Source: Bacteroidales bacterium
Lineage (GTDB): Bacteria > Bacteroidota > Bacteroidia > Bacteroidales > UBA3824
Length of the DNA: 40,031 nt
Assembly (NCBI GenBank): GCA_045640025.1
Contig: JAZUEG010000320.1
Span: 1 to 40,031, forward strand
Direction: 5' to 3'
Shown: positions 5,695 through 37,373 of the stretch, piece by piece
How positions within the stretch are numbered: the stretch's first letter is position 1
How the letters are laid out: every line of letters starts with the position of its first letter
Program-made: the position numbers and the translations under genes
Notes under the pieces: model-generated
Database searches by the model: none
Told to the model about the DNA's origin: nothing
Seen by the model: the letters and a program-made list of their open reading frames with translations, nothing else

Positions 5695-5696
5695 AA

Positions 5697-10574: not shown

Positions 10575-10600
10575 CGGTGTAATTTTTTTTATTTTTGATT

Positions 10601-15137: not shown

Positions 15138-15145
15138 TATATTTG
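15138..15145 (+). promoter_or_regulatory. -7 promoter box TATATTTG for the DUF488 operon
   Basis: TAnnTTTG lies 15 nt upstream of the ATG at 15161. It overlaps the TTG start of the ORF track, which argues for the ATG as the true start. Confidence 0.5.
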
Positions 15146-15160
15146 AAAAATTTTCTGGCT

Positions 15161-15721
15161 ATGGTAAAGTCTTGTATATATACAATTGGTCACGGCAACA
15201 AATCTATTGAAGAATTGGTCACTATTCTTAGGTCTTATGGAATTAAGTATTTGATTGACGTAAGATCTAAGCCATATTCCAAATATTATCCACAATTCAA
15301 TAGGGAAGATCTTGCTGTGTCTATAAATAACACTGGTGATATTGTTTATGGATATATGGGTGACCAAATTGGTGGTTTGCCTCCTGACGATAGATACAAA
15401 ACCAATGGGAAAATGGATTATAACAAGATGAAAACTAATCCTAATTATCAGATTGGGTTGTCCCGTATTATTAAGGCCAATAATTTAGGTTTTCCTACTT
15501 GTTTGATGTGTAGTGAGAGTAATCCTGCAGAATGTCATAGGTCTAAACTTTTAGGAGAGTCTTTACGAGAAAACGGGATCATAATTAATCACATTGTTAA
15601 AAACAAATTGGGTAAATATGTTTTGAAATCCCAAAAAGATGTGATAAATGAGGTTGCAAACGAAGGTGTTGAGGATCTGTTTGGAGAATCATTGTGTTTA
15701 ATGTCTAGAAATACTTATTGA
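15161..15721 (+). CDS. DUF488 family protein (paralog A)
   Basis: The N-terminal IYTIGHGNKSIEELVTILRSYGIKYLIDVRSKPYS and C-terminal LMCSESNPAECHRSKL match the conserved DUF488 signature (IYTIGHS...L.DVR..P.S and LLC.E..P..CHR). Confidence 0.75.
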   Translation: MVKSCIYTIGHGNKSIEELVTILRSYGIKYLIDVRSKPYSKYYPQFNREDLAVSINNTGDIVYGYMGDQIGGLPPDDRYKTNGKMDYNKMKTNPNYQIGLSRIIKANNLGFPTCLMCSESNPAECHRSKLLGESLRENGIIINHIVKNKLGKYVLKSQKDVINEVANEGVEDLFGESLCLMSRNTY

Positions 15722-15722
15722 A

Positions 15723-16202
15723 ATGAAGATATATACAGTTGGTGTTTACGGAAAAACAGAAGAGGAATTTTTCTCTTTGTTGACAGATAATAGTATAGAT
15801 ACTTTTCTGGATATACGTCAAAGGAGGGGCGTTCGTGGTTCTCTTTATCGTTTTGTGAATAGTAATTATTTGCAAATGAAACTTAAACAGATGGGTGTTA
15901 ATTATTTGTATAAAAAGGAATTAGCGCCTACTACTGAGATAAGAGAGAAACAATGGGCTGAAGATAGGGATAAGAATGAGACAAAAAAACTTAGAACTAC
16001 TTTGAGTTCTTTATTTTCGAATTGCTATTGTAGTCAAATTCTTGATAGTTTTGATTTTGAGGCTTTAATTAGGGATTTGGAAATAATTCAATCAGAGAAT
16101 GTTGTGTTGTTCTGTGTTGAATCTGTTGCTACCGCTTGTCATAGGTCTTTGTTGGCAAAACGATTGAAAAGTAGTTATGGATTTGAAGTAATAAATTTGT
16201 AA
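15723..16202 (+). CDS. DUF488 family protein (divergent paralog B)
   Basis: Motifs IYTVGVYGKTEEEFFSLLTDNSIDTFLDIRQRR and LFCVESVATACHRSLLA. It starts 1 nt after the stop codon of paralog A. Confidence 0.7.
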   Translation: MKIYTVGVYGKTEEEFFSLLTDNSIDTFLDIRQRRGVRGSLYRFVNSNYLQMKLKQMGVNYLYKKELAPTTEIREKQWAEDRDKNETKKLRTTLSSLFSNCYCSQILDSFDFEALIRDLEIIQSENVVLFCVESVATACHRSLLAKRLKSSYGFEVINL

Positions 16203-16213
16203 ATTCGTATTGT

Positions 16214-16819
16214 ATGTCTCGTATAGTTGTTGTTGCTAGGACAAAGATGAAGAGCGGTGTTTGTTGTGGCGCTCTTGATTTGGATACCTTAGAGTTCCTG
16301 AGGATACATAATGAGCGTGGTGCCCATTTGACAGATGATGCTCCATATCAAGTAGGACAAGTTTACGAGGCTGTGTATCAAACAGCCTGGAATGCAAGGC
16401 CTTTGCCCCATTCCGAAGATAAACAATTTATTTCTAGTGTTTATCAGCATACTATGTCGGAATTCGAATTGATAAATTTTGTAAATGATAATGTTTTGGT
16501 TTATGAAGGAGATTTGTCAAATGTTTTTGAAGGATGTTTGAAATTGTCTTCTTTTTCTCCTTATATCGATAAAGATGCAGTTCCTTCCCATAGTGTTTGT
16601 TTTTGGCGTAGTAATGTTCCTTTGAAAAAAGTAATTTCTTTTGGAAAGGTCAAATATAATTCCGAACGACATTTTTTAAGTTATGTTGGTTTTCAAGATC
16701 CTGTTGACGAAATACCGGAAGGAACTTTGATTAGGCTTTCATTGGCTAATTGGTGGTCAAAGGACGACCGTTTTGAGAAAAAGTGTTATTTGCAGTTGTC
16801 TGGTTGGTATGGTTTGTAG
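16214..16819 (+). CDS. Hypothetical 201-aa protein, third gene of the DUF488 operon
   Basis: It starts 11 nt after the DUF488-B stop and shares its strand and low GC. The N-terminus is IVVVARTKMKSGVCCGALD and the C-terminus is KKCYLQLSGWYGL. I cannot place the family with confidence; it vaguely recalls proteins annotated as dual-OB domain. Confidence 0.6.
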   Translation: MSRIVVVARTKMKSGVCCGALDLDTLEFLRIHNERGAHLTDDAPYQVGQVYEAVYQTAWNARPLPHSEDKQFISSVYQHTMSEFELINFVNDNVLVYEGDLSNVFEGCLKLSSFSPYIDKDAVPSHSVCFWRSNVPLKKVISFGKVKYNSERHFLSYVGFQDPVDEIPEGTLIRLSLANWWSKDDRFEKKCYLQLSGWYGL

Positions 16820-19073: not shown

Positions 19074-19081
19074 TATATTTG
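19074..19081 (+). promoter_or_regulatory. -7 promoter box TATATTTG
   Basis: Lies 18 nt upstream of the ATG at 19100. Confidence 0.45.
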
Positions 19082-19099
19082 CGCCTTAACGCAAAAATT

Positions 19100-20302
19100 A
19101 TGAAGGACAACAATTTGACAAAATACACCCACGACGGGTTGGATCTTCCGATTGAGAATTGGAATGTGGGAAGTCATTCTTTTGATGATTTGACTTCGGT
19201 GATTCAGACAACTCACGATGCCTCGCAGACTTCGGCAATCAAGGCAATCAACCGCTTGCAGACTATGCGCAACTGGTTGATAGGCTATTATATTGTGGAG
19301 TTTGAGCAGAATGGCAAGGACAGGGCTGAGTATGGTAAGAAGTTATTAGAGACTCTTGAAAAAAAAGTTAATAGAAAAGGGTTGAATATGACTTTGTTTA
19401 GATATGCAAGAAAATTTTACTTGTTGTATCCACAGATGGTTGATAATATCAGTGATTGGGTTTTTGAATCAACGACTAATCAATCGTTATTTAATGAAGT
19501 TGATGTTGTAGAAGTAATTGATAATCAAGTTGATGAAATTCGCGCGACGCCGTCGCGCGAATTTAGAACTCCTGGACAACGTCTTATTTCGCGATTGTCT
19601 TTTTCTCACATTAGAGAGATTATGACAATTGACGATCCTTTTCAGCGTTACTTTTATGAGCAGGAGTGTATCAAGTGCACTTGGTCTGTAAAAGAGTTGC
19701 GCCGTCAGATATCTACAAATCTTTATGTGCGTGCTGGTATCAGTGCCAATCCTGAGAAGTTGCTGTCGGCATATACTGACAATAATTCTGATACTCCCGC
19801 TCTTCAAATCCGTCAGCCGATGACTTTTGAGTTCTTGGGCTTGAAGGCTCAGGATATTGTGGACGAGAACGATTTGGAGGATGCCCTTATTTCTCATCTT
19901 CAGGAGTTTATGATGGAGTTGGGTAAGGGTTTCTGTTTTGAGTCGCGTCAGCAGAGGATCGTTATTGATGACGAATATTTCTATCCTGATTTGGTTTTCT
20001 ATAATAGAATGTTGCATTGCAATGTGATTATCGAATTGAAAAACGAGGAGTTCTCTTATCAGAATTTTGGTCAACTGAACGCATACGTGTCTTATTATAA
20101 GGAGAATGAGATGCAACCTGGTGACAATCCTCCAATTGGTATTCTGCTCTGCACCCGCAAGGGAAAGAAAATGGTGGAATATGCTCTCGCTGGAATGGAT
20201 AATCAATTGTTTGTTTCCACATATATGCTTCAACTTCCTGAGAAAAAGGTCCTTGAGGATTTCTTGCTGAAACAGATGAAGGAATTCGGCGAGGAACTTT
20301 AA
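19100..20302 (+). CDS. YhcG/DUF1016 family PD-(D/E)XK nuclease-domain protein
   Basis: The N-terminal part is NWLIGYYIVEFEQNGKDRAEYGKKLLETL...FYLLYP...WSVKELRRQI. The C-terminal nuclease core is FEFLGL...EDALISHLQEFMMELGKGFCFESRQQRI...PDLVFYNRMLHCNVIIELK...GQLNAYV. The ATG at 19100 is preferred over the alternative start at 19079. Confidence 0.75.
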   Translation: MKDNNLTKYTHDGLDLPIENWNVGSHSFDDLTSVIQTTHDASQTSAIKAINRLQTMRNWLIGYYIVEFEQNGKDRAEYGKKLLETLEKKVNRKGLNMTLFRYARKFYLLYPQMVDNISDWVFESTTNQSLFNEVDVVEVIDNQVDEIRATPSREFRTPGQRLISRLSFSHIREIMTIDDPFQRYFYEQECIKCTWSVKELRRQISTNLYVRAGISANPEKLLSAYTDNNSDTPALQIRQPMTFEFLGLKAQDIVDENDLEDALISHLQEFMMELGKGFCFESRQQRIVIDDEYFYPDLVFYNRMLHCNVIIELKNEEFSYQNFGQLNAYVSYYKENEMQPGDNPPIGILLCTRKGKKMVEYALAGMDNQLFVSTYMLQLPEKKVLEDFLLKQMKEFGEEL

Positions 20303-20915: not shown

Positions 20916-23282
20916 ATGAAGAGATTTTTGATTGTGTCCTCAGTGGCTCTGTTGTCGTCTACTGCATTGGGACAAAACTATAAGGGTTCGGTTGTGGATG
21001 CTGATAATCAGCCTGTTCCATACGCCAATGTGGTGATGATGAGTCTGCCTGACAGCGCTTTTGTGTGCGGTACTGTGTCGGATGTCGATGGTAATTTCGT
21101 TTTGGAGTGCAATGGGAAGGCCGACCTTCTGAGGCTCTCGTCTATCGGTTTTCAGACTGTGTATGTACAGAATCCCAAGGAGGATCTGGGTGTGTTGAGT
21201 CTGTTGTCGGCTGATAAGGAATTGAACGAGGTGGTCGTTAGCGCCCAAAAGCCAAAGACAAGACTTACAGGCAATTCGATGGTTACAAGCATTACGGGCT
21301 CGGTTTTGGAGAAGTCGGGAACTGCCAAGGAGATGCTGGCCAAGGTGCCTGGTATGATGGAGGGCAAGGATGGATTGGAGGTGATAGGAAAGGGCGCTCC
21401 TGTCTTTTACATAAATGGCCGAAAGGTGCAGGATCTGGATGAACTTAAACGTCTGCAAAGTGATGAGATTAAGGAGGTTGAGGTAATCACCAATCCCGGC
21501 GCGCAGTACGATGCCACGGTGTCGTGCGTGGTTAGGATCAGGACTGTGCGACGTCAGGGAAACGGTTTCGGTTTCGACCTCCATTCCGAGGACTGCTACG
21601 ATATCGAGTACGGCAAAAACAACAAGAATGCTACCGCAAACCTGCGATACAGGCACAAGAATGTGGATGTTTTTGGACTGATTAATTACTGGGACTGGAA
21701 TTCCATAAACGATCAGACTCCTCATCAGTGGACTTATTTCAGGAATGGCGACGATATCAAGGTCTTGGATCAGGACGCGCGTCTCAGGAACGACTGGTAT
21801 GGAAAGGCTTTGAACTATAATTTAGGTGCCAACTGGCAAATATCTGACAATCATTCTGTTGGCGTTCGTGTGGATAAGCACGACAAGTTGGGAGGATATT
21901 CTTCTATGGAGGAGCAGACCAACATTGTGGAGTACCTGATGAGTGCGCCGTCAGAAACAAAAAAATCCGACAGCCATTCGTATCAGCGTAGCGACGACAC
22001 CGAGCCTTACAATGTGGACGGCAACGCCTATTATAATGGCAAGGTGGGTAAACTCGGTATTGATTTCAACTTCGATTTTATGACCAAGAAGTCGCAGGAC
22101 AACAATATTGTGGATCTTTTTGACGCCGACAAGCGCTCCACCATTGATACCAAGAAGACCAATATGGTGGCAGACAAATTGGTGCTCACTTATCCTGTTT
22201 GGAAGGGTCAACTTACTGTGGGTGAGGAGAATTCGTCGGTGATGCGCAAGAGCGATTATGTTGTGGAAGGTCTGGATATCTCGTCGTCGAAATCTGAGGT
22301 AAGGGAAAACAATCTGGCGGTTTTTGCCGAGTATGGTTTCCAATTGGAGAAACTGGGCGCCTTTACGGCCGGCCTGCGCTACGAGCACGTGGGTCTCGAC
22401 TACACAAGTTTCAGCAATCCCGAGAATTCGCTTTCGAGAAACAACGACAATGTGTTCCCCTCGGCCTCGTGGTCAAGGCAGTTTGGTCAGGTGCAGACCT
22501 CGCTTAGTTACCGTTTCAAGGTTCAGAGACCTAATTACTGGAGCCTCAACGAGGCTATGGTTTACTTGAATCCTTATTCGTATCAGCAGGGCGACCCTAA
22601 ACTGAAGAATCAGAATTCTCAGAATGTGGATGCCAATATCCATTGGAAGGTGCTGAATCTCTCGATGTCGTACGGATGCGTGAAGAATTCTTTCGTTGAG
22701 TGGTCGTATGTGCATAATGATGAGGGCGTTATCGTGATCAGGAATATCAATCTTGATGAGCCCGTTAATAAGTTCTCGGCCTTTCTGAATGCCTCTCCAA
22801 CTTTCGGAGTTTATTCTCCAAATTGGACCGCTGGAATTATGAGCGCCACTTTGAGCAAGACTTTAGCAGATCCACGCGAAGCCTCTGATGCTCGGGAAAT
22901 TTGCTATCGCAAGCCTATCTCGATTATCAACTGCAACAACGCTTTCCGCCTGAAGGGCAACTGGCAGTTGGAGGCCAATCTGTTCTGTCAGTTTAAGGGC
23001 GACGTGATGACTTACAGGCTTCAAAACAATCTCTATAACCTGAACTTTGTGGCTCAGAAGAGTTTCCTGAAAGACAAGTCGCTGGTCTTGCGCGTCACCT
23101 TTGATGATGTGCTCCGCAAATCGGGTCAGGATGTGGCTATGGACTGCGGTTATTATTACTTGGAGCAGAGTCAGCACAGGAATAGTCAGAGGCTAAATGT
23201 CTCTGTAAGATACACTTTCAATCAGAGTCAGAGCAAGTATAAGGGCACCGGGGCCGGAAGCGAGGCCAAGGAGAGGATGTAG
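20916..23282 (+). CDS. Outer-membrane beta-barrel protein with CarboxypepD_reg-like N-terminal domain (TonB-dependent-receptor-like)
   Basis: 788 aa. It has a signal peptide, then YKGSVVDADNQPVPYANVVM...GTVSDVDGNFVLE (carboxypeptidase-regulatory-like fold), a plug-like segment and a long region of alternating beta-strand character. The terminal RYTF lies about 24 aa before the C-terminus. Confidence 0.8.
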   Translation: MKRFLIVSSVALLSSTALGQNYKGSVVDADNQPVPYANVVMMSLPDSAFVCGTVSDVDGNFVLECNGKADLLRLSSIGFQTVYVQNPKEDLGVLSLLSADKELNEVVVSAQKPKTRLTGNSMVTSITGSVLEKSGTAKEMLAKVPGMMEGKDGLEVIGKGAPVFYINGRKVQDLDELKRLQSDEIKEVEVITNPGAQYDATVSCVVRIRTVRRQGNGFGFDLHSEDCYDIEYGKNNKNATANLRYRHKNVDVFGLINYWDWNSINDQTPHQWTYFRNGDDIKVLDQDARLRNDWYGKALNYNLGANWQISDNHSVGVRVDKHDKLGGYSSMEEQTNIVEYLMSAPSETKKSDSHSYQRSDDTEPYNVDGNAYYNGKVGKLGIDFNFDFMTKKSQDNNIVDLFDADKRSTIDTKKTNMVADKLVLTYPVWKGQLTVGEENSSVMRKSDYVVEGLDISSSKSEVRENNLAVFAEYGFQLEKLGAFTAGLRYEHVGLDYTSFSNPENSLSRNNDNVFPSASWSRQFGQVQTSLSYRFKVQRPNYWSLNEAMVYLNPYSYQQGDPKLKNQNSQNVDANIHWKVLNLSMSYGCVKNSFVEWSYVHNDEGVIVIRNINLDEPVNKFSAFLNASPTFGVYSPNWTAGIMSATLSKTLADPREASDAREICYRKPISIINCNNAFRLKGNWQLEANLFCQFKGDVMTYRLQNNLYNLNFVAQKSFLKDKSLVLRVTFDDVLRKSGQDVAMDCGYYYLEQSQHRNSQRLNVSVRYTFNQSQSKYKGTGAGSEAKERM

Positions 23283-23421: not shown

Positions 23422-24879
23422 ATGAATGATTTGAGGTTTGCAAATATAATAGGCAGAAAACGTGAACTCGAGGTGTTGGGTCAGGTTCTTGAGTCCGATA
23501 GGTCTGAGTTTGTGGCTATTTATGGCAGAAGGCGTGTCGGAAAGTCTTTTCTGATAAGTGAGTTTTTCGACAACAAGTTCTCGTTTTCGGTGGTGGGGTC
23601 GTATCTGAAGGAAAACGACGAGGCCACTTACAGGCAGACTCAGTTGTCGCATTTCTATGATCAGTTATTGGCATTTGGACTCAATGCAAATGCTCCAAGG
23701 ATTACCTGCTGGCGCGAGGCGTTTTCGTCTCTCAAGCAGTTGTTGCTGAGAAAACGTAGCAAGCGTAAGGTTGTTTTTATTGACGAACTGCCCTGGCTCG
23801 CTGGGCCTCAGTCGTCTGAACTGATTTCAGAACTCGGATATTTCTGGAATTCCTGGGCCGAGCGTCAGAAAAACATTGTGCTTGTGGTTTGCGGATCCGC
23901 CACAAGTTGGATGCTTGATAATATTATCCGCGATTACGGTGGATTGTATGGCAGACTTACACAGCGCATTAAGTTGTCTCCATTTACATTGGGTGAGTGT
24001 GAGCAGTTTTACAAAAGCCGTGGCTTCAAATTCTCAAGATACGAGATTGCCCTGTCGTATATGGTTTGGGGTGGCATTCCTTATTATATGAATATGCTGA
24101 AACGCAATCTTTCTCTTACTCAAAATATTAATAATCTGTTTTTTGGAGTAGACAATTACGAGGAAGAGTTTAAATCGGTTTATACAGGATTGTATTCGTC
24201 AACCGACAGATATATTTATATAGTGATGGCATTGGGCAAACGTTTTTATGGACTCACACGCTCCGAAATTCAGAAATCAATTCAGGTTTCGAGCGGTGGC
24301 ACATTAACCAAGATGCTTGATAATCTGCTTGAGTCGGGCGTTATCCGTCAATATCCAAGATATGGAAAATCGCGGGTAGAGACTGTTTTTCAGTTGAAGG
24401 ATTACTTTTCCCTGTTTTATCTCCGCTTCATATACGGCAAAAGTCAGTTGGGCTCTTGGAATATGATTAACCGTTCTGGCAATTTTTACTCCTGGGCGGG
24501 TAATACATTCGAGTTGCTCTGTATAGACCATATTCCTCAGATTTTGAGCGCTTTGCGATTGAGGGGCGTCAGGAATGTGTATTGCTATTCAGGAACGGCC
24601 TCTTCGGGAAGGGAGGCTCAGATAGATTTAGTTTTTGAATCTGAAGGAGAGCGTGCTGACTATATCTGCGAGATTAAATTCTCTGAAAATCAGTTTGCTA
24701 TTGATGTGGATTACGAATCCAAGTTGTCGGACAAAATCGATGCTTTCCTCCATAGCAAACAGCACAAGCCTACTCGTTCGTTGTTGCTTGTTATGATTGT
24801 GGCCAATGGCTTGTCGAAAAATGAACATTCTCATCAGGTGGATGAGGTGGTTACATTGGATGATTTGTTCTCTGAATGA
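23422..24879 (+). CDS. AAA+ ATPase (ATPase_2/DUF234 type) with C-terminal PD-(D/E)XK-like module, paralog 2
   Basis: Walker A GRRRVGKS, Walker B VVFIDELPW, VCGSA. The C-terminus is QIDLVFESEGERADYICEIKFS. It is collinear with 10601-12022 over its whole length. Confidence 0.8.
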   Translation: MNDLRFANIIGRKRELEVLGQVLESDRSEFVAIYGRRRVGKSFLISEFFDNKFSFSVVGSYLKENDEATYRQTQLSHFYDQLLAFGLNANAPRITCWREAFSSLKQLLLRKRSKRKVVFIDELPWLAGPQSSELISELGYFWNSWAERQKNIVLVVCGSATSWMLDNIIRDYGGLYGRLTQRIKLSPFTLGECEQFYKSRGFKFSRYEIALSYMVWGGIPYYMNMLKRNLSLTQNINNLFFGVDNYEEEFKSVYTGLYSSTDRYIYIVMALGKRFYGLTRSEIQKSIQVSSGGTLTKMLDNLLESGVIRQYPRYGKSRVETVFQLKDYFSLFYLRFIYGKSQLGSWNMINRSGNFYSWAGNTFELLCIDHIPQILSALRLRGVRNVYCYSGTASSGREAQIDLVFESEGERADYICEIKFSENQFAIDVDYESKLSDKIDAFLHSKQHKPTRSLLLVMIVANGLSKNEHSHQVDEVVTLDDLFSE

Positions 24880-24994: not shown

Positions 24995-25453
24995 ATGAAA
25001 ACAAAATTCAGATTTTTGGCGGTGCTGATGCTTTCGGTGCTGGCCTTTACGCTACCCTCGTGCGATGATTGCTGGGACGATTACGAGAACTATGATGGCG
25101 ACTACGACGAGGATATGTCGCGCGTGATTTGCGGTGTCTGGGAGGGCGACTTCGACGGCGTGGATACCGAGATGGAGTTCAATCCCGATTACAGGAATGC
25201 CAAATGGGGCTATGGCACAGAGTTTTGTGGCGATGACAAGTTCGATTTTGAGTGGGAGATCCGCTATGGTATCCTGGAACTCACTTACCGCGATGCCCAC
25301 GACCGCGACTGCCGAATCGGCAATTACCATATCACCAACAAGCGTTTCAAGGGCCGTTTGAACAACACCGATATCCATTTCTCTTTCAAGAAAACCGACA
25401 AGTATTACTCGTTTAATCCTCCGTTCGACGAGAGAATGGGAAATTATAAGTAG
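24995..25453 (+). CDS. Small lipoprotein, function unknown
   Basis: Signal peptide plus lipobox MKTKFRFLAVLMLSVLAFTLPSC. The mature N-terminus is acidic. 152 aa. Confidence 0.7.
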   Translation: MKTKFRFLAVLMLSVLAFTLPSCDDCWDDYENYDGDYDEDMSRVICGVWEGDFDGVDTEMEFNPDYRNAKWGYGTEFCGDDKFDFEWEIRYGILELTYRDAHDRDCRIGNYHITNKRFKGRLNNTDIHFSFKKTDKYYSFNPPFDERMGNYK

Positions 25454-25492
25454 TTTTTTTTAGTTGAGAGATTAGAGATTAGAGATTAGAGA

Positions 25493-25527
25493 GCCTTTCG
25501 GATTTTGGGATTCGGAAGGCTTTTTTT
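25493..25527 (+). terminator. Intrinsic terminator
   Basis: Stem gcctttcg (25493-25500) / cggaaggc (25513-25520), which includes one G-U pair, then a T7 run (25521-25527). It is preceded by (gagatta)x3 at 25467-25487. Confidence 0.6.
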
Positions 25528-25536
25528 GTGGGTTAT

Positions 25537-25602
25537 CCTCATAAAATTGTAGTTTTCGGGTGTTTGATCCCTCATAAAATTGTGATGGTGTTAAGTAATT
25601 TG
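25537..25602 (+). repeat. Two degenerate tandem 33-bp units (cctcataaaattgt core)
   Basis: cctcataaaattgt occurs at 25537-25550 and 25570-25583, exactly 33 bp apart. Confidence 0.6.
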
Positions 25603-25717
25603 TTTATTTACAGGATCTTTGCTTGGGTAGTTTTGGTTTAGTTTTGATGTAAGTAATTATTTACAAGTGATATGCAGATTTAAGATTGAGTTCTTTGGTT
25701 GAGATAATCCTGAAAGA

Positions 25718-25816
25718 TGCGATTAGGGCAAAATTTGGTGGTTTGAAATTTGCGATTAGGGCGATTTTTAGCGTTTTGAAAATTGCGATTAGGGAAAGTG
25801 TGAATTGTAGTTTGTT
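25718..25816 (+). repeat. Three degenerate tandem 33-bp units (tgcgattaggg core)
   Basis: tgcgattaggg occurs at 25718-25728, 25751-25761 and 25784-25794, exactly 33 bp apart. Each copy is preceded by tgaaa plus 2-3 further nt (tgaaaga, tgaaatt, tgaaaat). Confidence 0.7.
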
Positions 25817-25978
25817 GTGAATTAGTTGGTTTTGCGTGGTGGTTTTGATGATGTTCTCTTTTGTAAAATTTGATTGAATTTGACATATTTTGAAATTTGT
25901 TGTTTGGTAGAGAGAATTGAGGGTGTTTTGGTGAAAAATATTCACAGATTTTGTTTTGAGTATATAAAAAAGGTGATT

Positions 25979-25986
25979 ATATTTGC
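25979..25986 (+). promoter_or_regulatory. -7 promoter box TATATTTG, candidate promoter of the long leader and the MotAB-HNH operon
   Basis: This is the only TAnnTTTG I found in a suitable + orientation between 25900 and 26243. It lies about 85 nt upstream of the long hairpin and about 258 nt upstream of the ATG at 26244. Confidence 0.35.
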
Positions 25987-26069
25987 ATTCGGTATTCAAC
26001 AAATTTGCCTATGAACATTTAGACAATATTTACATATAATAATATTTAAAAGTATTAACTAAATTCATT

Positions 26070-26184
26070 CTTGCTGAAGTTTGGCGACTTAAACAGAATT
26101 GATTGAGTTGAAGTTAATGCCTGCGTGCTTTGTGCGTGGGCTTTAACTGTCTGTCAATTCGGGTACGCCAAACACCTCAGCAAG
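26070..26184 (+). ncRNA. About 115-nt multi-tier hairpin (candidate structured 5' leader or small RNA)
   Basis: Helices traced by hand: 26070-26077/26177-26184 (8 bp), 26080-26086/26166-26172 (7 bp), 26096-26102/26154-26160 (7 bp), and 26112-26128/26132-26148 (apical stem, 1 mismatch). The apical stem has several G-U pairs, so it works only as + strand RNA. A T8 run lies at 26210-26217. Confidence 0.4.
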
Positions 26185-26243
26185 CAGATATGTTAGAGTG
26201 CCACGCTTATTTTTTTTGATAACAAATTAATACAATAATAGAA

Positions 26244-27704
26244 ATGGAAAATTTATTTAAGTTAGACTCGCTAACAATAATTTGGTTGACTATAACCGTG
26301 TTGTTGCTTATAGTATCGATTGTGTTAGTTACGGTTTGGAAAAAGAAAGGGACTTTGTCAGATAATCAACGAATGATTGATTGTTTACCTTCTTTGTTGT
26401 CAACGTTTGGCGTTTTGGGTACTTTTATTGGTATTACAATTGGATTGATTCATTTTGAGACAAGTGATATTGATGCTAGTATACCTAAATTGTTGGATGG
26501 TCTTAAAACAGCATTTTTTACTTCTCTTGCTGGTATGGGATGTTCTATGATTTTACAACAGATAATCTCCTTTGTCTTTGATAGAGCAGAGAAAAAATCT
26601 GATATTTCCATTGCCTCTCAGAAGATTGTAGAGGCAGTAGAGGAAATGAAGAATGTTTTGAGTAAGCAATCTAGTGATTTAGAGTCTGTTCAAACTAATT
26701 TTTATAAATACGCAGAAGGTCAATTGTCTTCTTTGGGTAAGGGAATTGATAAGATGTTGTTAGCATTGAATGGCATTTCTTCTGATACCGACAATATTTC
26801 AACTATTTCAGAATCATTAGCGTCAATAAATAAATCTGTTGATTCGGTTGATGGATATTCTGCCAAGATTTTGAAGGGTGAAGATGAACTAAATTCCTCT
26901 TTGAAGTCGTATATCGCTAAGTTCGATATAGGAATTGCTGATTTGCAGAGGCAGATGTCAGGAACAAATGTGTTGCTCGGTGAAAAATTTGATGAGTTTA
27001 GTCAATTGCTGAAGAAGAGCAATACTGAGGCTCTTGTTGAGGTTATGAAGAAAGTAACCGAGGAATTCCAAAAGCAGATGAATGATCTTATTGGTCGTCT
27101 TGTAAAAGAAAATTTCCAACAATTGAACGATAGTGTTAAGCGTTTGAACGATTGGCAATTGGAGAACAAAGAGATGATTCAGAAGTTGACTTCTCAGTAT
27201 GTTCAGATGACCGATTCTTTCGAGAAGACTTCTACAACACTTGATAAGGTCGGTAAGGATACTACTGTTTTGGTTTCTGATGGCAGTAAACTTGATCAGA
27301 TTGTCAAGGCCTTGAATGAGGTGATGGTAGATGACCAACGTTTTGTTGAAATGGGTGTAAATCTCACTGAGTCTGCAGAAAGTGTAAGAGATGCTAATGC
27401 AAGTTTCAATGATAGTGCTCAGAAACTAAGCAACTGGGTTCTTAAACAAAAGGATTTTAATGAGAATGTTAATGTCTTGATTAAGAAACTTGATGATATT
27501 AATAAGATTAACGATTATGCTTCTACTTTCTGGTCAGAGGCTCGAAAAGGTATGAATGATAGTGTTGGTATTTTGCAAACTGGTTCAAAGAATTTGCAAC
27601 AGCAAATCAATGGTATTAATCAGTCATTCTATGAGCGATTGAGTGCAACTCTTGGCGAACTTGACAATCTTATAACTTCGTGGTTAAAGAATAATAGGAG
27701 ATAA
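26244..27704 (+). CDS. MotA/ExbB/TolQ-like proton-channel protein with long C-terminal coiled-coil tail (ZorA-like)
   Basis: 486 aa. TM1 is LTIIWLTITVLLLIVSIVLVTVW. TM2 LPSLLSTFGVLGTFIGITIGL matches the GLLGTV.G motif of MotA/TolQ/ExbB. TM3 is LKTAFFTSLAGMGCSMILQQI (AL.TT..GL-like). The following roughly 370 aa are heptad-rich, Cys-free helical sequence of low aromatic content (Q/E/K/L/N/S). Confidence 0.8.
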   Translation: MENLFKLDSLTIIWLTITVLLLIVSIVLVTVWKKKGTLSDNQRMIDCLPSLLSTFGVLGTFIGITIGLIHFETSDIDASIPKLLDGLKTAFFTSLAGMGCSMILQQIISFVFDRAEKKSDISIASQKIVEAVEEMKNVLSKQSSDLESVQTNFYKYAEGQLSSLGKGIDKMLLALNGISSDTDNISTISESLASINKSVDSVDGYSAKILKGEDELNSSLKSYIAKFDIGIADLQRQMSGTNVLLGEKFDEFSQLLKKSNTEALVEVMKKVTEEFQKQMNDLIGRLVKENFQQLNDSVKRLNDWQLENKEMIQKLTSQYVQMTDSFEKTSTTLDKVGKDTTVLVSDGSKLDQIVKALNEVMVDDQRFVEMGVNLTESAESVRDANASFNDSAQKLSNWVLKQKDFNENVNVLIKKLDDINKINDYASTFWSEARKGMNDSVGILQTGSKNLQQQINGINQSFYERLSATLGELDNLITSWLKNNRR

Positions 27705-27706
27705 TT

Positions 27707-28405
27707 ATGGCAAAACATAACGAATGGATGTCTGTTTCTGACTTGATGACAGGATTGATGATTATCTTTCTTTTCATTACGGTTGCTTATATGAAACGAG
27801 TTAAGGAAAATCAAAACGTCCTTAATGATTATGTTGAGACTCGAAATCAATTGTACGAAGAATTGAAAGATAAATTCCAAGTTGAATTGAATAATCGAGA
27901 TTTGGCGTTAGGCAATGATTTGTCTATGAAGTTCAATAATGCGTCTAGTTTGTTTGAATCAGGCAAATCTGAATTGACAAATGAGTTCAAGCAAAAATTG
28001 GATATGTTTTTGCCAAAGTATCTTGATATTTTGCTCAATAGTGAATTTTCTGATGAGATAATGGAAATTCGAATTGAAGGACATACCGATCCCGTTAGAT
28101 TTGATGCTCTGGACAAGGATCCTTATATTGCCAATGTAATTCTTTCTCAACGTCGTGCGTTAGAGGTTTTGAAATATTTAAGGAAACTTCCTATGTATGA
28201 GGAGTTAGATTCTGCCAAGAAAGCCAAACTGAACTTTTGGTTTACTGCAAATGGATTTTCTTATGGAAAATCTCTTGATAGTAGTGGCGAATATACTTAT
28301 GTTAGTAAGAATGACATTGATAACGATAAATCACGTCGAGTGGAGTTTCGTATTATTACACGAGGTGATGATATATTGATTGATTTTGTTAATAAGAATA
28401 AATAG
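27707..28405 (+). CDS. MotB/OmpA-like peptidoglycan-binding stator protein (ZorB-like)
   Basis: 232 aa, starting 2 nt after the upstream stop. The N-terminal TM helix WMSVSDLMTGLMIIFLFITVAYM carries the conserved channel Asp (D12) as in MotB/TolR/ExbD. The OmpA-like C-terminus has IRIEGHTDPV, LSQRRALEVLKYL and SRRVEFRI. Confidence 0.85.
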   Translation: MAKHNEWMSVSDLMTGLMIIFLFITVAYMKRVKENQNVLNDYVETRNQLYEELKDKFQVELNNRDLALGNDLSMKFNNASSLFESGKSELTNEFKQKLDMFLPKYLDILLNSEFSDEIMEIRIEGHTDPVRFDALDKDPYIANVILSQRRALEVLKYLRKLPMYEELDSAKKAKLNFWFTANGFSYGKSLDSSGEYTYVSKNDIDNDKSRRVEFRIITRGDDILIDFVNKNK

Positions 28406-28408
28406 ATT

Positions 28409-29284
28409 ATGGAAGAGCCAAAGTTAATATGTTCGTTTTCTAAATTAAGGAATTTTATAGAAAGTTCGGGAGTTACCGTGGGTAATCGTCCGACTTATCG
28501 TGCTGTAAGGGCAGGAGATATTACTATAAAGAATGGTAATTTATCAGGTGAGGTCTTTGAAGATGCCGATGGTATGTTTGCTGTAAGTGATTCTGATGGG
28601 GTTGATCGAAAGGTTTTCCTGATAAAAAAATCATATAACTTTGGATATGGATCTACTCCTAAGGCACATTTATGTATGTGTGAAGCGGTAAACACTTTTG
28701 GCTCAAGTTCGTATAGATATGCTAATGACTTGCCGATTTCTGTTAGGGATTCTAGTTCAGGCAATAATATAAGTCTTAGCAATCTTGGATTGTGTAATTA
28801 TTGTAGGAATCAATTGCAGAATGAGTTTTCTAAAATTAGATCTATCAATGAATTTGTTGATATATTAAAGTCTGCCGATGATGGCTTGTTTAATGAGCCC
28901 GAAAACAATGAAGTTGATTTTAATGGTTATGTAAAAGATTGGAACAAAATCAGTGAGGCGTATCGTGTGACAAAGCAATACAAGTGTGAGAAATGTGGCA
29001 TTGATTTAGATGATTTTCAAGGCCATTTTTATTGTCAAGTTCATCACAAAAATGGTGATAAATTAAACAATAGAACAAATAATCTGATTTGCTTATGTGT
29101 TGCTTGCCATTCAAATGTAGATGCTCGGCATAAGGATAATTTCAGTACTAAAGCAAATCAAGAATTGCTTAAGGCTTTTGAGAAATATAAAAAGGAGAAT
29201 AACAAGCAGGTTGATGTACCACAACAAAACAATCCTCTTTCTGTTGAATCTCATTTAACGAGTTTGTTTAAATTTAAATCTTAA
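28409..29284 (+). CDS. HNH endonuclease-domain protein with unknown ~190-aa N-terminal domain (ZorE-like effector)
   Basis: 291 aa, starting 3 nt after the upstream stop. The C-terminal motif is CEKCG...QVHHKNGDKLNNRTNNLICLCVACHSNVDARH, which has CxxC, HH, N, N and CxxCH and so gives a zinc-finger-type HNH. Confidence 0.8.
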   Translation: MEEPKLICSFSKLRNFIESSGVTVGNRPTYRAVRAGDITIKNGNLSGEVFEDADGMFAVSDSDGVDRKVFLIKKSYNFGYGSTPKAHLCMCEAVNTFGSSSYRYANDLPISVRDSSSGNNISLSNLGLCNYCRNQLQNEFSKIRSINEFVDILKSADDGLFNEPENNEVDFNGYVKDWNKISEAYRVTKQYKCEKCGIDLDDFQGHFYCQVHHKNGDKLNNRTNNLICLCVACHSNVDARHKDNFSTKANQELLKAFEKYKKENNKQVDVPQQNNPLSVESHLTSLFKFKS

Positions 29285-29298
29285 TATGATATAAGATT

Positions 29299-29499
29299 AT
29301 GGATAAGATTACGACACGTGTCGAATTTGACGCAACCCGAGCAGAAGTCGACCGTCTTATTGCCGAGGCAACCGAAAAAGGTATGCTTGAACCTGAAATG
29401 GACAACGAATATATTCAGGAAATTTCTCGTCTCTGTCTTTTAATGGCAGATTACGAGGATAATGTGCTCAAGATTTTTCCATTGAGGGAACGGGGTTAA
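29299..29499 (+). CDS. Small 66-aa protein resembling only the N-terminal helical part of HigA-type antitoxins (possible gene remnant)
   Basis: The pattern ITTRVEFDATRAEVDRLIAEA...EYIQEISRLCLLMADYEDNV resembles the N-terminal region of HigA-like proteins (I..e.EY..al..i..L.....l..L..lI..YE). No HTH follows. GC is backbone-like, which differs from the adjacent low-GC operon. Confidence 0.35.
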   Translation: MDKITTRVEFDATRAEVDRLIAEATEKGMLEPEMDNEYIQEISRLCLLMADYEDNVLKIFPLRERG

Positions 29500-29633
29500 G
29501 CATTAATCATCAATAATTTATAATTATCCCCCAACTTGGGGGACAATTATATAAAAGAACGTTACGGCGGATTATCCAATTTCTTGACTATCCCCGTCCG
29601 AAACGGCTCGTACTTATCTTTTGTAATGCTCGC

Positions 29634-30083
29634 CTACTTAGATTTTGTGAAATCTAAATCCCTTCTTGATGGTCTTTCGTATGTGAATTTTGTGTTTCCG
29701 TCAGGATGTGTGATTGCAAAATCCATAAGCGAAATTATTGGCATTCCTATTAGGATGTCGTAATCAGGAAGTTCGTTTACTACAACTTCTACGTCTTCAA
29801 ATAGTTCTCCACTCGGCAGTCCCAAATGAACACGACATACTTCTCCTTCGCAATCTCCGCCTGCGCCTGCTATTATTGCTTTGCCGATAGGTTTTAGACA
29901 AAGTGCTTTTGCAACTTTAGGAGTGATGATAACGCTACTTGCGCCTGTGTCCCAAGCGCCTATGTTTGTGTGGTAGTATTCTTTTATTTGTTCTCCTTTG
30001 GATAAATCGGCGGGTGGAAAAATAAGGCATTCTGTTACAATTGCCTCAGCCAAGCCATTGTAATTGGTTACGAATTTTCCCAT
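29634..30083 (-). CDS. Retropepsin-like aspartyl protease
   Basis: 149 aa. It has the catalytic AWDTGAS (D-T-G-A) and a downstream ILIGMPIIS (the hydrophobic-hydrophobic-Gly motif of clan AA). The size fits a single-lobe, dimerising bacterial retropepsin. Confidence 0.7.
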   Translation of the reverse strand: MGKFVTNYNGLAEAIVTECLIFPPADLSKGEQIKEYYHTNIGAWDTGASSVIITPKVAKALCLKPIGKAIIAGAGGDCEGEVCRVHLGLPSGELFEDVEVVVNELPDYDILIGMPIISLMDFAITHPDGNTKFTYERPSRRDLDFTKSK

Positions 30084-30398: not shown

Positions 30399-30734
30399 AT
30401 GGATACTAACAATATATTAGCACTTCTGGAGCAATATACAATTGACAATCCTGATGATGTGGCGATGGAGATTGCTAATGATTTCAGGAGGCGGAGGATT
30501 GAGAAAAATCTTACCCGTGAGCAGGTGGCCGAGATGTCGCAGGTGCCGTTGTCGAATATCGCGAGGTTCGAGCAGAAGGGACTTGTCTCGCTTCAGAACC
30601 TCATAAAGATTGCTATGGCCGTTGGCTATACTTCCGACATTAAGAATATTTTCAAGACTCAGAAGTATCAGACAATGGATGAAATGCTTCAGATAAAGAG
30701 AAATCTCAATAAAAAACGGGCTACTAAGAAATGA
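30399..30734 (+). CDS. hipB: XRE-family HTH antitoxin (HipB-like)
   Basis: 111 aa. The HTH is LTREQVAEMSQVPLSNIARFEQKG. Its stop overlaps the hipA start (ATGA, 4-nt overlap). Confidence 0.7.
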   Translation: MDTNNILALLEQYTIDNPDDVAMEIANDFRRRRIEKNLTREQVAEMSQVPLSNIARFEQKGLVSLQNLIKIAMAVGYTSDIKNIFKTQKYQTMDEMLQIKRNLNKKRATKK

Positions 30735-31849
30735 AATCTATCGAAAAACTTTTAGTGAAATATCACGGTAGGGGGGTGGGCAGGTTGTCCCTTACTCCTA
30801 ATAGCCGTTTGTGCGCTTTTGAATACAATAGTCAATGGTTGTCTGATGGATTCTCTATTTCTCCGTTGGAATTGCCGTTGAAGCCTGGAGTGTTTGTTGC
30901 AAAACCTAATCCGTTGGCTGGTAATTTCGGCATTTTTGAGGATAGTCTTCCTGATGGATATGGCCGTTATCTCCTGCATAAAACTCTTCAGAGTCAGGGA
31001 GTTGATGATAATAATCTTTCTGTCTTGGATAGGTTGAGCATTGTTGGCAGTGGAGGTATGGGCGCGTTGTGTTATGAGCCCGAGACCCATATTTTGAAGG
31101 CTGTGGAAGTCGCTGATTTCGACTTGCTTCAACAACGTGCCTTGGAGGTTCTTCAGGAAAAGACTGATGATGACGCAGGATTGCTTTTGTACAATAGTGG
31201 AAACAGCGGAGGGTGCCGTCCAAAGGCGGTTTTCTCTGATAGTCAGGGACATTGGCTTGTAAAATTCCGCCATACATACGATCCTAAGGATATGGGAGTT
31301 CAGGAATTTCATTATAATGAGATTGCCCGTAAATGTGGAATTCAAGTTCCTGATTTCAAGTTGTTGAATAGTAAGTATTTCGCTACACGTAGGTTTGATA
31401 TTTCAGGAGACGGAGAGCGCATTCACGTGGCCACGGCAGGAGGATTGCTTGGCTTGTCGCTTTCCACACCTGTACTTGATTATGCTAATTTGTTGTCGTT
31501 GACGGGCTATCTTACTCAGGATTATAAGGCCGTAGAGGAGATGTTTCGCCGTATGGTTTTTAATTATCTTGCTGATAATAAGGACGATCATTGCAAGAAT
31601 TTCGGTTTTATGTGTATGGGTGGTGTTGACGGCAAGTACCGTTGGCGTCTGGCTCCTGCGTATGACCTTACTTATTGTGCTGACGGCTATAACGGTGAAC
31701 ACGCCACTTCCGTGAATGGAACGTCGAAACCGAAACTATCTGATTTTGTGACAGTTGGTCAAAAGGTTCGGATTCAGGAAAGCCGTTGCCGAGAGATTAT
31801 TGCGCAGATTACCGATAATTGCGGTGATTTGTTGAGGTATAAATTCTAA
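30731..31849 (+). CDS. hipA: HipA-family serine/threonine kinase toxin
   Basis: 372 aa. The N-terminal coupling domain reads GRLSL...FEYNSQWL...ISPLELPL. It has GGCRPKA, the catalytic loop DDHCKNFGF and the Mg-binding region LAPAYDLTY. Confidence 0.8.
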   Translation: MKSIEKLLVKYHGRGVGRLSLTPNSRLCAFEYNSQWLSDGFSISPLELPLKPGVFVAKPNPLAGNFGIFEDSLPDGYGRYLLHKTLQSQGVDDNNLSVLDRLSIVGSGGMGALCYEPETHILKAVEVADFDLLQQRALEVLQEKTDDDAGLLLYNSGNSGGCRPKAVFSDSQGHWLVKFRHTYDPKDMGVQEFHYNEIARKCGIQVPDFKLLNSKYFATRRFDISGDGERIHVATAGGLLGLSLSTPVLDYANLLSLTGYLTQDYKAVEEMFRRMVFNYLADNKDDHCKNFGFMCMGGVDGKYRWRLAPAYDLTYCADGYNGEHATSVNGTSKPKLSDFVTVGQKVRIQESRCREIIAQITDNCGDLLRYKF

Positions 31850-36518: not shown

Positions 36519-37373
36519 ATGGCAAAGTATCTAAATCCCAAAGCGGACCTTACCTTCAAGAAGGTTTTCGGAGAGCACAAGCACCTTGTGATAAGTCTCC
36601 TAAATTCCCTTTTGCCTTTGCCTGAGGGTATGAAGATTGAGTCTGTTGAGTATCTCAGCGGTGAGAATCATCACGGAAATATAGATAAAAAATATTCCAT
36701 TGTTGATGTGAAGTGCACCGACAATTATGGACGCACCTTCGTGGTTGAAATGCAGAATTACTGGACAACGGCATTCTTCTCACGCACACTTTATAATGCC
36801 GTTCTCACTTACAGCAATCAGTTAAAAAAGGGTCAGTCGTTTGATAAACTGAAGGATGTATATGCTCTTAGTCTTGTCAACGAATCTGAGATAAAATGTT
36901 CAGAGGAAAACGCCAACGAGTATATTCACGAGTATTACCTGACAAATCAGAAAAACGCAAAAGATGTCCATAAGGATATCTCGCTTATATTTGTGGAGTT
37001 GCAGAAATTCAAGTCTCTTGGTAAGAAATTCGACGATAAGGCCGTTGACAAAATGGCAAATCTCTGGCTGAAATTCCTCACTGAGATCGACGACGATACC
37101 GTGGATGTTGATCCCGAACTCCTGAATTCCCCCGTAACCGCAGAGGCGCTTGAGATTGTTGAGACCGCGGCTTATACTCCCGAGGAGTTGGAAGCCTACA
37201 ATAAATATTGGCTTGATATCTCCACCGAGCGGTCTGCGTTGGCAGAAAGCCGTAAGGAAGGAATTACGGAGGAAAAATACAATGTAGCCCACAAGATGAA
37301 ATCCGACAATCTGCCTTTGGATTTAATTGCAAAATACACTGGCCTCTCCGCCGAAGAGATTGCGAATATTTAA
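36519..37373 (+). CDS. Rpn-family PD-(D/E)XK recombination-promoting nuclease / putative transposase
   Basis: 284 aa. The N-terminus MAKYLNPKADLTFKKVFGEHKHL...YSIVDVKCTDNYGRTFVVEMQ is the characteristic start and D...E-x-Q/K core of the PDDEXK_2 / Rpn family that is abundant in Bacteroidales. Confidence 0.85.
   Translation: MAKYLNPKADLTFKKVFGEHKHLVISLLNSLLPLPEGMKIESVEYLSGENHHGNIDKKYSIVDVKCTDNYGRTFVVEMQNYWTTAFFSRTLYNAVLTYSNQLKKGQSFDKLKDVYALSLVNESEIKCSEENANEYIHEYYLTNQKNAKDVHKDISLIFVELQKFKSLGKKFDDKAVDKMANLWLKFLTEIDDDTVDVDPELLNSPVTAEALEIVETAAYTPEELEAYNKYWLDISTERSALAESRKEGITEEKYNVAHKMKSDNLPLDLIAKYTGLSAEEIANI

Follow-up and report, generated by a model that had tools for sequence, protein, structure and literature searches.

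A stretch of Bacteroidales DNA of 40,031 nucleotides (nt), contig JAZUEG010000320.1 of assembly GCA_045640025.1 and hereafter the window, contains the three adjacent genes zorA, zorB and zorE, preceded by a structured 5′ leader. The genes are co-oriented and, in the open reading frame (ORF) list, separated by gaps of 2 nt (zorA/zorB) and 3 nt (zorB/zorE); with a terminator on the 5′ side and a hairpin on the 3′ side, this is the layout of a single operon in the order zorA-zorB-zorE (Table 1). Their translations contain FGVLGTFIGI, LKTAFFTSLAGMG, VSDLMTGLM, GHTDPV, SQRRA, RRVEF and CEKCG...HHKNGD...CLCVACH. ORFs, gaps and motifs all confirm the report of three tightly packed genes in a first-pass annotation of this DNA, which had also remarked on a low-GC setting; the G+C content is 0.335-0.352 across 26-29 kb as compared with 0.40-0.53 over most of the window, though this is one of several such patches. 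We consider the three genes to be, with a probability of about 0.9, a complete type II Zorya anti-phage operon in a defence-rich region of a Bacteroidales chromosome.

Table 1. Features of the window, in order of position
Feature	Position	Strand	Description
Eco57I/MmeI-like N6 methylase	12-1745	+	ORF begins at 12, near window start
HpaII endonuclease and C5 methylase	4618-7037	-	RE_HpaII E 3e-113; methylase E 4e-104
ATPase_2/AAA_14 proteins	10595-12022, 23422-24879		two paralogues; second directly 5′ of Zorya region
DUF488 proteins, then Dual-OB (DuOB) protein	15143-16819	+	two adjacent DUF488 proteins (192 and 159 amino acids, aa)
YhcG nuclease	19079-20302		from window ORF scan
TonB-dependent-receptor-like gene	20916-23282		~3 kb upstream
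Gene upstream of Zorya region	24995-25453	+	ends in intrinsic terminator
Tandem repeat	25467-25492		AGAGATT x3.7
Intrinsic terminator of upstream gene	25488-25532	+	17-bp hairpin (25488-25525), then U7
14-nt repeated word	25537-25583		CCTCATAAAATTGT x2 at 33-nt spacing
33-nt repeat unit	25711-25794		x2.5, core TTGCGATTAGGG
Putative Bacteroides-type promoter	25955-25985	+	-33 TTTG (25955-25958), 19-nt spacer, -7 TATATTTG (25978-25985)
Structured 5′ leader of zorA	26022-26221	+	diverged member of Bacteroidales leader family
zorA	26244-27704	+	486 aa; MotA/ExbB-like three-helix membrane domain and ~365-aa helical cytoplasmic tail
zorB	27707-28405	+	232 aa; N-terminal transmembrane helix with Asp12 and OmpA-like peptidoglycan-binding domain
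zorE	28409-29284	+	291 aa; ZorE N-terminal domain and CCCC-zinc HNH nuclease domain
66-aa ORF	29299-29499	+	starts 14 nt past zorE; Pfam scan without match
Hairpin	29519-29551	.	-16.8 kcal/mol, z = -3.8; terminator-like site on minus strand
Retropepsin-like aspartyl protease gene	29634-30083	-	149 aa; convergent to Zorya operon
HipB-like helix-turn-helix (HTH) and HipA kinase toxin-antitoxin pair	30399-31849	+	beyond the protease gene
PD-(D/E)XK_2 protein	36519-37373		from window ORF scan

Products of the three genes and their conservation

ZorA matches the PADLOC ZorA2 profile PDLC00635 with an E value of 2.9e-154, residues 5-481 aligning with profile positions 4-498 of 505, and its best match in the PDB is the ZorA of the Sulfuricurvum kujiense type II complex (8VVI; E 6e-19). 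In an AlphaFold2 model, helices at residues 9-35, 42-69 and 76-115, with predicted local distance difference test scores (pLDDT) of 75-87, precede a tail, residues 120-484, that is modelled as helical with short breaks only. The confidence of the tail is low, as expected when a tail that bundles as a pentamer is modelled as a monomer. The model agrees with the earlier description of three transmembrane (TM) helices without a cytoplasmic loop followed by a helix of ~370 aa, and so predicts the helical tail that was looked for. In an alignment of 22 relatives, ZorA has invariant TM motifs at G56-G67 and T89-M98 and a distal tail (238-474) that is strongly conserved, the middle of the tail being variable and the site of length differences. 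A faint match to the Pfam family PF28082 (ZorA-like_t1) is precomputed for a protein that is 99% identical to ZorA.

The first-pass annotation had judged gene 1 to be unusually short for a ZorA. A length of ~700 aa is that of type I ZorA. PADLOC ZorA2 profiles span 420-590 positions, and 2033 relatives found at E<=1e-10 cluster at 450-600 aa, with many having exactly 484 aa; with thousands of relatives in this range, 486 aa is a normal length. The S. kujiense type II ZorA, in which the tail begins at residue 100, has only 378 aa (PMC11890865), and the judgement was therefore mistaken.

ZorB is matched over its full length by the PADLOC ZorB2 profile PDLC00641 (238 positions; E 2.3e-71) and, over residues 3-230, by the ZorB of 8VVI (E 4.6e-35), with Asp12 in SVSDLMT aligned with the Asp of SLSDMMT in the solved protein. 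The Pfam OmpA domain scores 31.8 bits, above its cut-off.

ZorE residues 5-263 align with positions 5-265 of the 267 in the PADLOC ZorE2 profile PDLC00644 (E 1.5e-70). When 1.8 billion cluster representatives were searched with a profile, 161 matched at E<=1e-30, mostly 250-290 aa in length and mostly covering both domains. The N-terminal domain, which had been described as unrecognised, is thus within the ZorE2 profile and is found with the same architecture in these representatives. Within the HNH domain, C193, C196, H212, H213, K218, N221, C230, C233, H234 and H241 are invariant in the seven closest relatives, as is a H87/C91/C129/C132 cluster within the N-terminal domain. The Pfam HNH_3 score (24.8) is at the cut-off, the HNH part has a pLDDT of 76-91 in an AlphaFold2 model made with a 7-sequence alignment, and a profile search of PDB sequences identified no solved relative of ZorE. 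The N-terminal domain of E. coli ZorE is named DUF8245 and has a Zn site at H90, and H226, K231, N234, N238 and H247 are essential; the published residue list also holds Y189, and Zn-site mutants were made (bioRxiv 10.64898/2026.05.12.724681). With residue numbers compared rather than aligned, H213 of the window ZorE and the positions +5, +8, +12 and +21 from it reproduce the E. coli spacing. A Pfam scan of 7 ZorE family members returned HNH families only, the DUF8245 model being outside the Pfam set used; PF26739, listed without a name, is precomputed for two ZorE relatives.

The three genes remain together in related genomes. In all five Logan loci with the closest ZorE relatives (L001-L005; 49-53% identical), the triad is kept, encoding a ZorA of 469-499 aa, a ZorB of 230 aa and a ZorE of 262-286 aa within neighbourhoods that are unrelated. 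A genome scan with the ZorE alignment returned 26 loci, and genes for ZorA and ZorB adjoin the ZorE match in 20 of them; 19 have the A-B-E order with both genes directly upstream, and one (L023) has zorE between zorA and zorB. Five of the remaining six match the HNH domain only, and the sixth (L014) has a ZorB and no detectable ZorA. The zorA-zorB-zorE order is seen in L001-L013, L015-L022, L024-L025 and L028, so that homologues of gene 3 are syntenic with the MotAB-like pair, as the initial interpretation anticipated. Most hosts belong to the Bacteroidota (uncultured Prevotella and Bacteroides, along with Paludibacteraceae, Phnomibacter, Pedobacter, Balneola, Lewinellaceae and Chitinophagales), with a few others. 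ZorA/B/E-like genes are also present on contigs binned as Ca. Parcubacteria (L017), Ca. Woesearchaeota (L023) and Ca. Methylomirabilis (L011). Candidate phyla radiation (CPR) and archaeal hosts are unexpected for a peptidoglycan-anchored diderm system, and these contigs may be mis-binned.

Type II assignment, alternatives and proposed mechanism

For all three proteins the best PADLOC match is a type II-specific profile, aligned near end to end, with type I and type III profiles far lower, and the top NCBIfam matches are the models named type II Zorya ZorA2, ZorB2 and ZorE. Together with the 8VVI matches and the synteny, these end-to-end matches bear out the first-pass identification of ZorA, ZorB and ZorE of type II Zorya. 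NCBI names close relatives 'hypothetical protein', and, as the Pfam domains are generic or borderline, neither a reader with only the sequence nor the NCBI annotation pipeline would name these genes.

Several results weigh against this assignment. The NCBIfam scores fall well below the equivalog cut-offs, with 108.9 bits as compared with 700 for ZorA2 (NF041792), 108.2 as compared with 400 for ZorB2 (NF041787) and 59 as compared with 600 for ZorE (NF041791), in other words 10-27% of cut-offs set for narrow, E. coli-type equivalogs. Pfam MotA_ExbB scores 22.3 on ZorA with a cut-off of 22.9. Residues 1-176 of ZorE are modelled at pLDDT <50 from the 7-sequence alignment, and the resemblance of this domain to DUF8245 is suggested by the PADLOC coverage, the His/Cys pattern and the residue spacing. 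In a locus from another sample that is 97.6% identical to the window (L152:1926-2625), zorB is called as two ORFs of 43 and 193 aa, which could be an inactivating frameshift or decay in that strain, or an assembly error. Phage protection by this clade, or by any Bacteroidales Zorya, is the subject of no study found in the literature searched, consistent with the earlier remark that no Bacteroidales Zorya is known to have been characterised. The NCBIfam result shows divergence within type II, not membership of another family. As these cut-offs are missed, the proteins are distant from the E. coli reference systems, and the phage range, and a direct as opposed to an abortive outcome, may differ. 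Confidence in the family membership is high, and is lower for phage range and for direct as opposed to population-level protection.

Of the alternatives, a Zorya II by sequence that is silent, decaying or directed mainly at conjugative or mobilisable invaders rather than at phages is unlikely, and survives best. It would accommodate the split zorB in the near-identical locus, and also the leader described below, which is otherwise found on the cargo of mobilisable elements and is degenerate in the window. The three ORFs are, however, intact with their key residues conserved, and ZorA, ZorB and ZorE relatives hold 27-71% identity and invariant motifs across the loci compared; E. coli type I Zorya is reported to protect against phage, not against conjugation or transformation (PMC11946911). 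Still less probable is the first-pass suggestion of a minimal Zorya subtype that would be new, or of a MotAB-nuclease system in its own right, whose tail is short and whose effector domain is novel. The wide margin by which the NCBIfam equivalog thresholds are missed, low identity to the S. kujiense ZorA outside the TM core, a ZorE without the C-terminal nuclease-like extension of Druantia-associated E. coli ZorE and the failure to find a solved ZorE relative are in its favour, but the ZorA2, ZorB2 and ZorE2 profiles (505, 238 and 267 positions) already present in PADLOC-DB v2 (2023) are matched end to end, the lengths are typical of the family, with a ZorA that is longer than the characterised 378-aa type II ZorA, and the N-terminal domain of the effector lies within the ZorE2 profiles. 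Profiles, lengths and gene set and order are those of an ordinary type II system. Next to no weight can be given to genes 1 and 2 being an ordinary ExbB/TolQ-ExbD/TolR energiser or a MotAB/GldL/PorL-like stator with an HNH gene adjacent by chance: Pfam offers only a borderline MotA_ExbB domain and an OmpA domain that is generic, there is a TonB-dependent-receptor-like gene 3 kb upstream and the ZorA tail has a very weak GldL match (E 7e-4), but type II Zorya profiles are ahead of every other family by >100 orders of magnitude, no ExbB, TolQ, ExbD, TolR or PomA model scores in NCBIfam or PADLOC, there is no TonB, TolA, ExbD or Pal partner among the neighbours, a helical tail of ~365 aa is characteristic of Zorya and is not found in ExbB and TolQ, and the synteny of the HNH gene (5/5 Logan and 20/26 genome loci), with the profiles, already refutes it.

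Type II Zorya thus remains the preferred reading, and the known systems help to define what is shared. The type II Zorya of E. coli was reportedly described by Doron et al. in 2018. It has the same three genes, in the same order and with the same domain plan, as the window (Mariano et al. 2025, PMC11890865). The window operon differs from it in having a Bacteroidales host and a Bacteroides-type promoter and leader, and a ZorE of 291 aa as compared with a 358-position model for the E. coli protein; the C-terminal nuclease-like extension of the Druantia-linked E. coli ZorE is absent. With the S. kujiense ZorAB (8VVI), the TM core motifs, the ZorB Asp and a tail that begins right after TM3 are held in common, whereas the window ZorA exceeds that of S. 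kujiense by ~108 aa and the tails align in patches only. The type I system EcZorI (ZorABCD; Hu et al. 2024, PMC11946911) likewise has a 5:2 peptidoglycan-anchored ZorAB motor with a signalling tail, but type I ZorA has ~700 aa with an extra N-terminal region and the effectors are ZorC and ZorD, not ZorE; type I profiles match the window proteins weakly, on the TM core, with ZorA1 at 1e-16 or worse. MotAB, ExbBD and TolQR belong to the same 5:2 motor superfamily, consistent with the borderline MotA_ExbB match and the OmpA-type anchor in the window, but lack both a long helical tail and a nuclease partner, and there are no TonB, TolA or flagellar genes near the window Zorya.

Type I and type II ZorAB form 5:2 MotAB-like complexes in which a ZorB dimer binds peptidoglycan and five ZorA C-termini make up the tail, and defence needs ion flow, peptidoglycan binding and the tail (PMC11890865, PMC11946911). 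ZorE is a Mg/Mn-dependent nickase that is directed to the membrane by ZorAB during infection (PMC11890865). As the window proteins keep the residues that these functions need, the mechanism of the studied homologues can be assigned to them. By homology to 8VVI and 8QYD, ZorA and ZorB would assemble into a 5:2 ion-driven motor in the inner membrane, with the domains of the ZorB dimer anchoring it to peptidoglycan, ZorB Asp12 in the ion path and five ZorA C-termini bundled into a long cytoplasmic tail. Perturbation of the envelope by a phage would activate the motor, and the activated tail would then recruit or activate ZorE at the membrane. There, this Zn-stabilised HNH nickase is predicted to damage DNA where the infection occurs and thereby to limit phage spread. 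The operon is probably transcribed from the Bacteroides-type promoter at 25955-25985, with a structured 5′ untranslated region (UTR) of ~250 nt.

The upstream region and a structured leader family in Bacteroidales

The intergenic gap upstream of zorA (25454-26243; 790 nt) is composite, consisting of a terminator, a non-conserved spacer of ~420 nt, and a promoter with a 5′ UTR of ~250 nt. The terminator (-20.6 kcal/mol, z = -4.95; 0/200 shuffles fold as well) is within the first ~75 nt of the gap and is the upstream limit of the Zorya transcription unit. None of the spacer repeats is present in the related Zorya loci compared (L001-L031), and a BLAST search with the 790-nt gap as query, against the 31 Zorya-related loci and also against the remainder of the window, returned nothing significant. 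As BLAST finds no similarity to related loci, the repeats and the spacer are locus-specific; the spacer is similar only to that of L152, from a near-identical strain (97.6% over 4961 nt). Judged from the position of the putative promoter, transcription would start near 25990-25995, consistent with a 5′ UTR of ~250 nt. Within this leader, residues 26070-26187 form a long imperfect hairpin (-56.8 kcal/mol, z = -4.7) with GCGUGGG at its apex, followed by a GUGCCACGC box at 26198-26206 and, before the ATG, by a 56-nt stretch of ~75% A+U without a stable predicted fold.

Folding of the upstream regions of related loci revealed look-alike hairpins in L006 (Prevotella) and L007 (Bacteroides). Those two and the window hairpin have in common the GCGUGGG apex, a GGU...CC.A..ACCU segment and a GUKCCACG box, and in the consensus fold of the three copies 19 of 47 pairs change on both sides. 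A pattern made from the 24 invariant positions, for which one or two chance matches in the metagenome collection were estimated, matched at least 120 loci there. The family was found through structure and the derived pattern, not through sequence similarity. With the known copies, the search identifies at least 123 loci; members are present in L006, L007, L032-L151 (for example L065:4810-5064, minus strand) and L153 (L153:3501-3674). The window hairpin itself scores 136 bits with model R1, a score that is partly circular as R1 was built from the window copy, L006 and L007. The window leader lacks the upstream AAGAAGCGUUAUGC box and the small GGAACUG-loop hairpin of the family, and has its ATG only 38 nt after the box; the hairpin is kept through compensatory changes.

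Among the matches listed, Zorya II is present in only 5 of the 123 leader loci and, as the closest Zorya relatives (L001-L005) have no such hairpin, the idea that this is a Zorya-specific element was rejected. The first-pass annotation had described one 790-bp repeat-rich, structured leader; the gap, the repeats and the structure are all there, whereas a single leader specific to Zorya is not, the gap being composite and the hairpin occurring elsewhere.

The long hairpin is supported by covariation. In an alignment of 71 members, from the matches listed, 92.7% of cells are paired as compared with 37-46% with slid partners. In the same set, 32 of 47 pairs have compensatory changes, 592 cells are doubly changed as compared with ~100 in controls, and the covariation score is 0.524 as compared with at most 0.09 in controls. 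All of these numbers are somewhat flattered, as the alignment was fitted to a covariance model. The abundance of G-U pairs indicates an RNA read from the + strand. Among the dereplicated members in the matches listed, 48 of 71 have an ORF on the same strand that begins 45-65 nt past the box, as compared with 3 of 69 on the opposite side, and 65 of 69 have at least one TAnnTTTG within 260 nt upstream of the GCGTGGG anchor. There are 64 TAnnTTTG matches at 131-160 nt upstream of the anchor among the matches listed, and the window copy is at -156; the background rate of this motif is ~1 per kb. Covariation, distance to the start codon and the fixed position of TAnnTTTG together define the family as a promoter with a structured 5′ leader of ~250 nt. 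The same evidence disfavours a DNA cruciform or inverton, in which the G-U pairs would be A-C mismatches on the other strand and for which the gene starts are too strongly polar.

The genes that follow the leader are diverse, with at least 53 unrelated clusters of downstream proteins among the matches listed, including BACON-LRR surface proteins, lipocalin-like lipoproteins, WYL-WCX regulators and many unknowns. P. distasonis has a canonical copy (NZ_OY725823, near 147.9 kb); in this species the downstream gene encodes a DUF4433 (DarT-like) protein, and in one case an HsdR-like helicase, recognised by eye, starts 510 nt after the box. On the upstream side, where the two nearest 5′ genes were clustered for each locus, three recurrent families were identified, two by Pfam and one, rarA-like, by eye. 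The upstream gene encodes a Mob_Pre-type relaxase in at least 22 loci and, among the matches listed, the second upstream gene encodes a Toprim/CHC2 primase-like protein in all 8 of the Mob_Pre loci from which it was recovered. These neighbours place the leader at the junction of backbone and cargo in mobilisable elements. L041 has two copies in the same orientation 2.7 kb apart (L041:2908-3071 and L041:5601-5771), separated by a 293-aa ORF that is AbiEii-like by eye. Among the matches listed, this is the only one of 69 loci with a second copy within reach and, with no integrase among the three recurrent upstream families identified, an integron attC-like element or cassette array is not supported. 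The leader is also found on two contigs from human faeces designated 'Bacteriophage sp.' (MT836071.1:12295-12465 and MT837628.1:624-800), so that phages or phage-like elements may carry it too, besides mobilisable elements.

The leader family has no match in Rfam 15, was not found in the literature searched and is independent of Zorya. At the gathering score, Rfam 15 has no match over the whole window; at E<=1 there is none over 25450-26300 and, at E<=0.1, nothing falls on the element in 12 loci with canonical copies. Annotated Bacteroidales records have no feature under the leader, although the plasmid gene table omits genes for RNAs and neither of the two phage records is annotated, and leader sequence words gave chance matches only in the literature searched.

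In addition to the long hairpin, the leader has a second possible pairing. The 3′ tail, GGCAUUGCAGUUCCACGC, nearly repeats the 5′ arm, GGCAUAGUGGUUCUCACGC, and either can pair with GCGUGGGCUGCUAU. Among the matches listed, 95.9% of cells allow the alternative pairing, which is mostly invariant; one pair covaries clearly (CG 36, UA 15). One C/U position covaries with both partners (family consensus A4 and A6; 26134-26206 in the window). In many copies there is, in addition, a CCACG-CUU-CGUGG mini-hairpin with a U-run after it, and many have a hairpin with a variable stem and a conserved GGAACUG loop ~20 nt before the ATG. Read from the sequences, the mutually exclusive pairings suggest a two-state switch or attenuator.

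Attenuators and riboswitch-like leaders, and the FopS family (PMC11697453), offer the closest parallels, likewise with structured RNA, a sigma-ABfr-type promoter and multiple copies in Bacteroidales. FopS RNAs are trans-acting small RNAs (sRNAs) of 65-70 nt that are reported as deposited in Rfam (PMC11697453), whereas the leader acts in cis, has ~250 nt and ends 45-65 nt before a start codon; identity with the FopS/GibS sRNAs was rejected on size and architecture. In contrast to riboswitch-like leaders, the downstream genes have no common metabolic theme. Our working hypothesis is that the leader most likely sets or switches the expression of the cargo that follows. A more specific proposal, to which we give somewhat less than an even chance, is that these are portable modules of a sigma-ABfr promoter and a structured UTR in gut and rumen Bacteroidales, with a common switch that places mobile cargo, this Zorya included, under one signal. 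The cargo would comprise Zorya II, DarT-like and AbiE-like genes, WYL regulators and surface lipoproteins, and the switch, with two pairings that exclude each other and a start codon at a fixed distance, might be an attenuator or a protein- or RNA-responsive leader.

Genomic neighbourhood and significance

Downstream of zorE, the 66-aa ORF may be co-transcribed with the Zorya genes or be a gene remnant. It is also called in L152 (L152:3519-3719) and does not recur as a conserved partner across the more distant Zorya loci compared; by eye, it resembles the N-terminal part of HigA-like antitoxins with the HTH domain missing. The hairpin that follows, between convergent units, is likely a terminator that works in both directions and sets the operon's downstream limit. 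A HipA module, such as that beyond the protease gene, is also close to the Zorya locus in L001.

Accessory and defence genes form a mosaic across the window. Its HpaII-type restriction-modification pair is complete, and there are several defence systems in addition to Zorya. ATPases of the ATPase_2/AAA_14 (DUF4143) type adjoin other Zorya II loci (L001:5264-6604 and L003:1601-2959) and, among the matches listed, loci of the leader family (upstream clusters 2 and 8); they may be frequent passengers of Bacteroidales accessory regions, or functional neighbours. The DUF488-DuOB cluster, in which the second DUF488 protein matches the DUF488-N3a subclade and the G+C content of the patch is 0.32-0.35, may be a small conflict or defence module. 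A search of the window for tRNAs and integration sites found none, and none of the window ORFs scanned was recognised as an integrase, mobilisation or Druantia III gene.

The Zorya locus is an uncharacterised member of an already profiled family, and it is the leader family that is the lead worth following. Intact and recognisable type II systems are common in Bacteroidota, where no Zorya study was found in the literature searched, and the window operon provides a concrete candidate for a Zorya in a gut anaerobe whose envelope and phages both differ. The leader cassette fronts accessory and defence genes by the dozen, unrelated to one another, and often sits where the backbone of a mobilisable element meets its cargo. 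If the proposal of a common switch is true, the leader would give the mobile genes of gut Bacteroidales a regulatory handle in common, and Bacteroides engineering an expression part that is ready for use.

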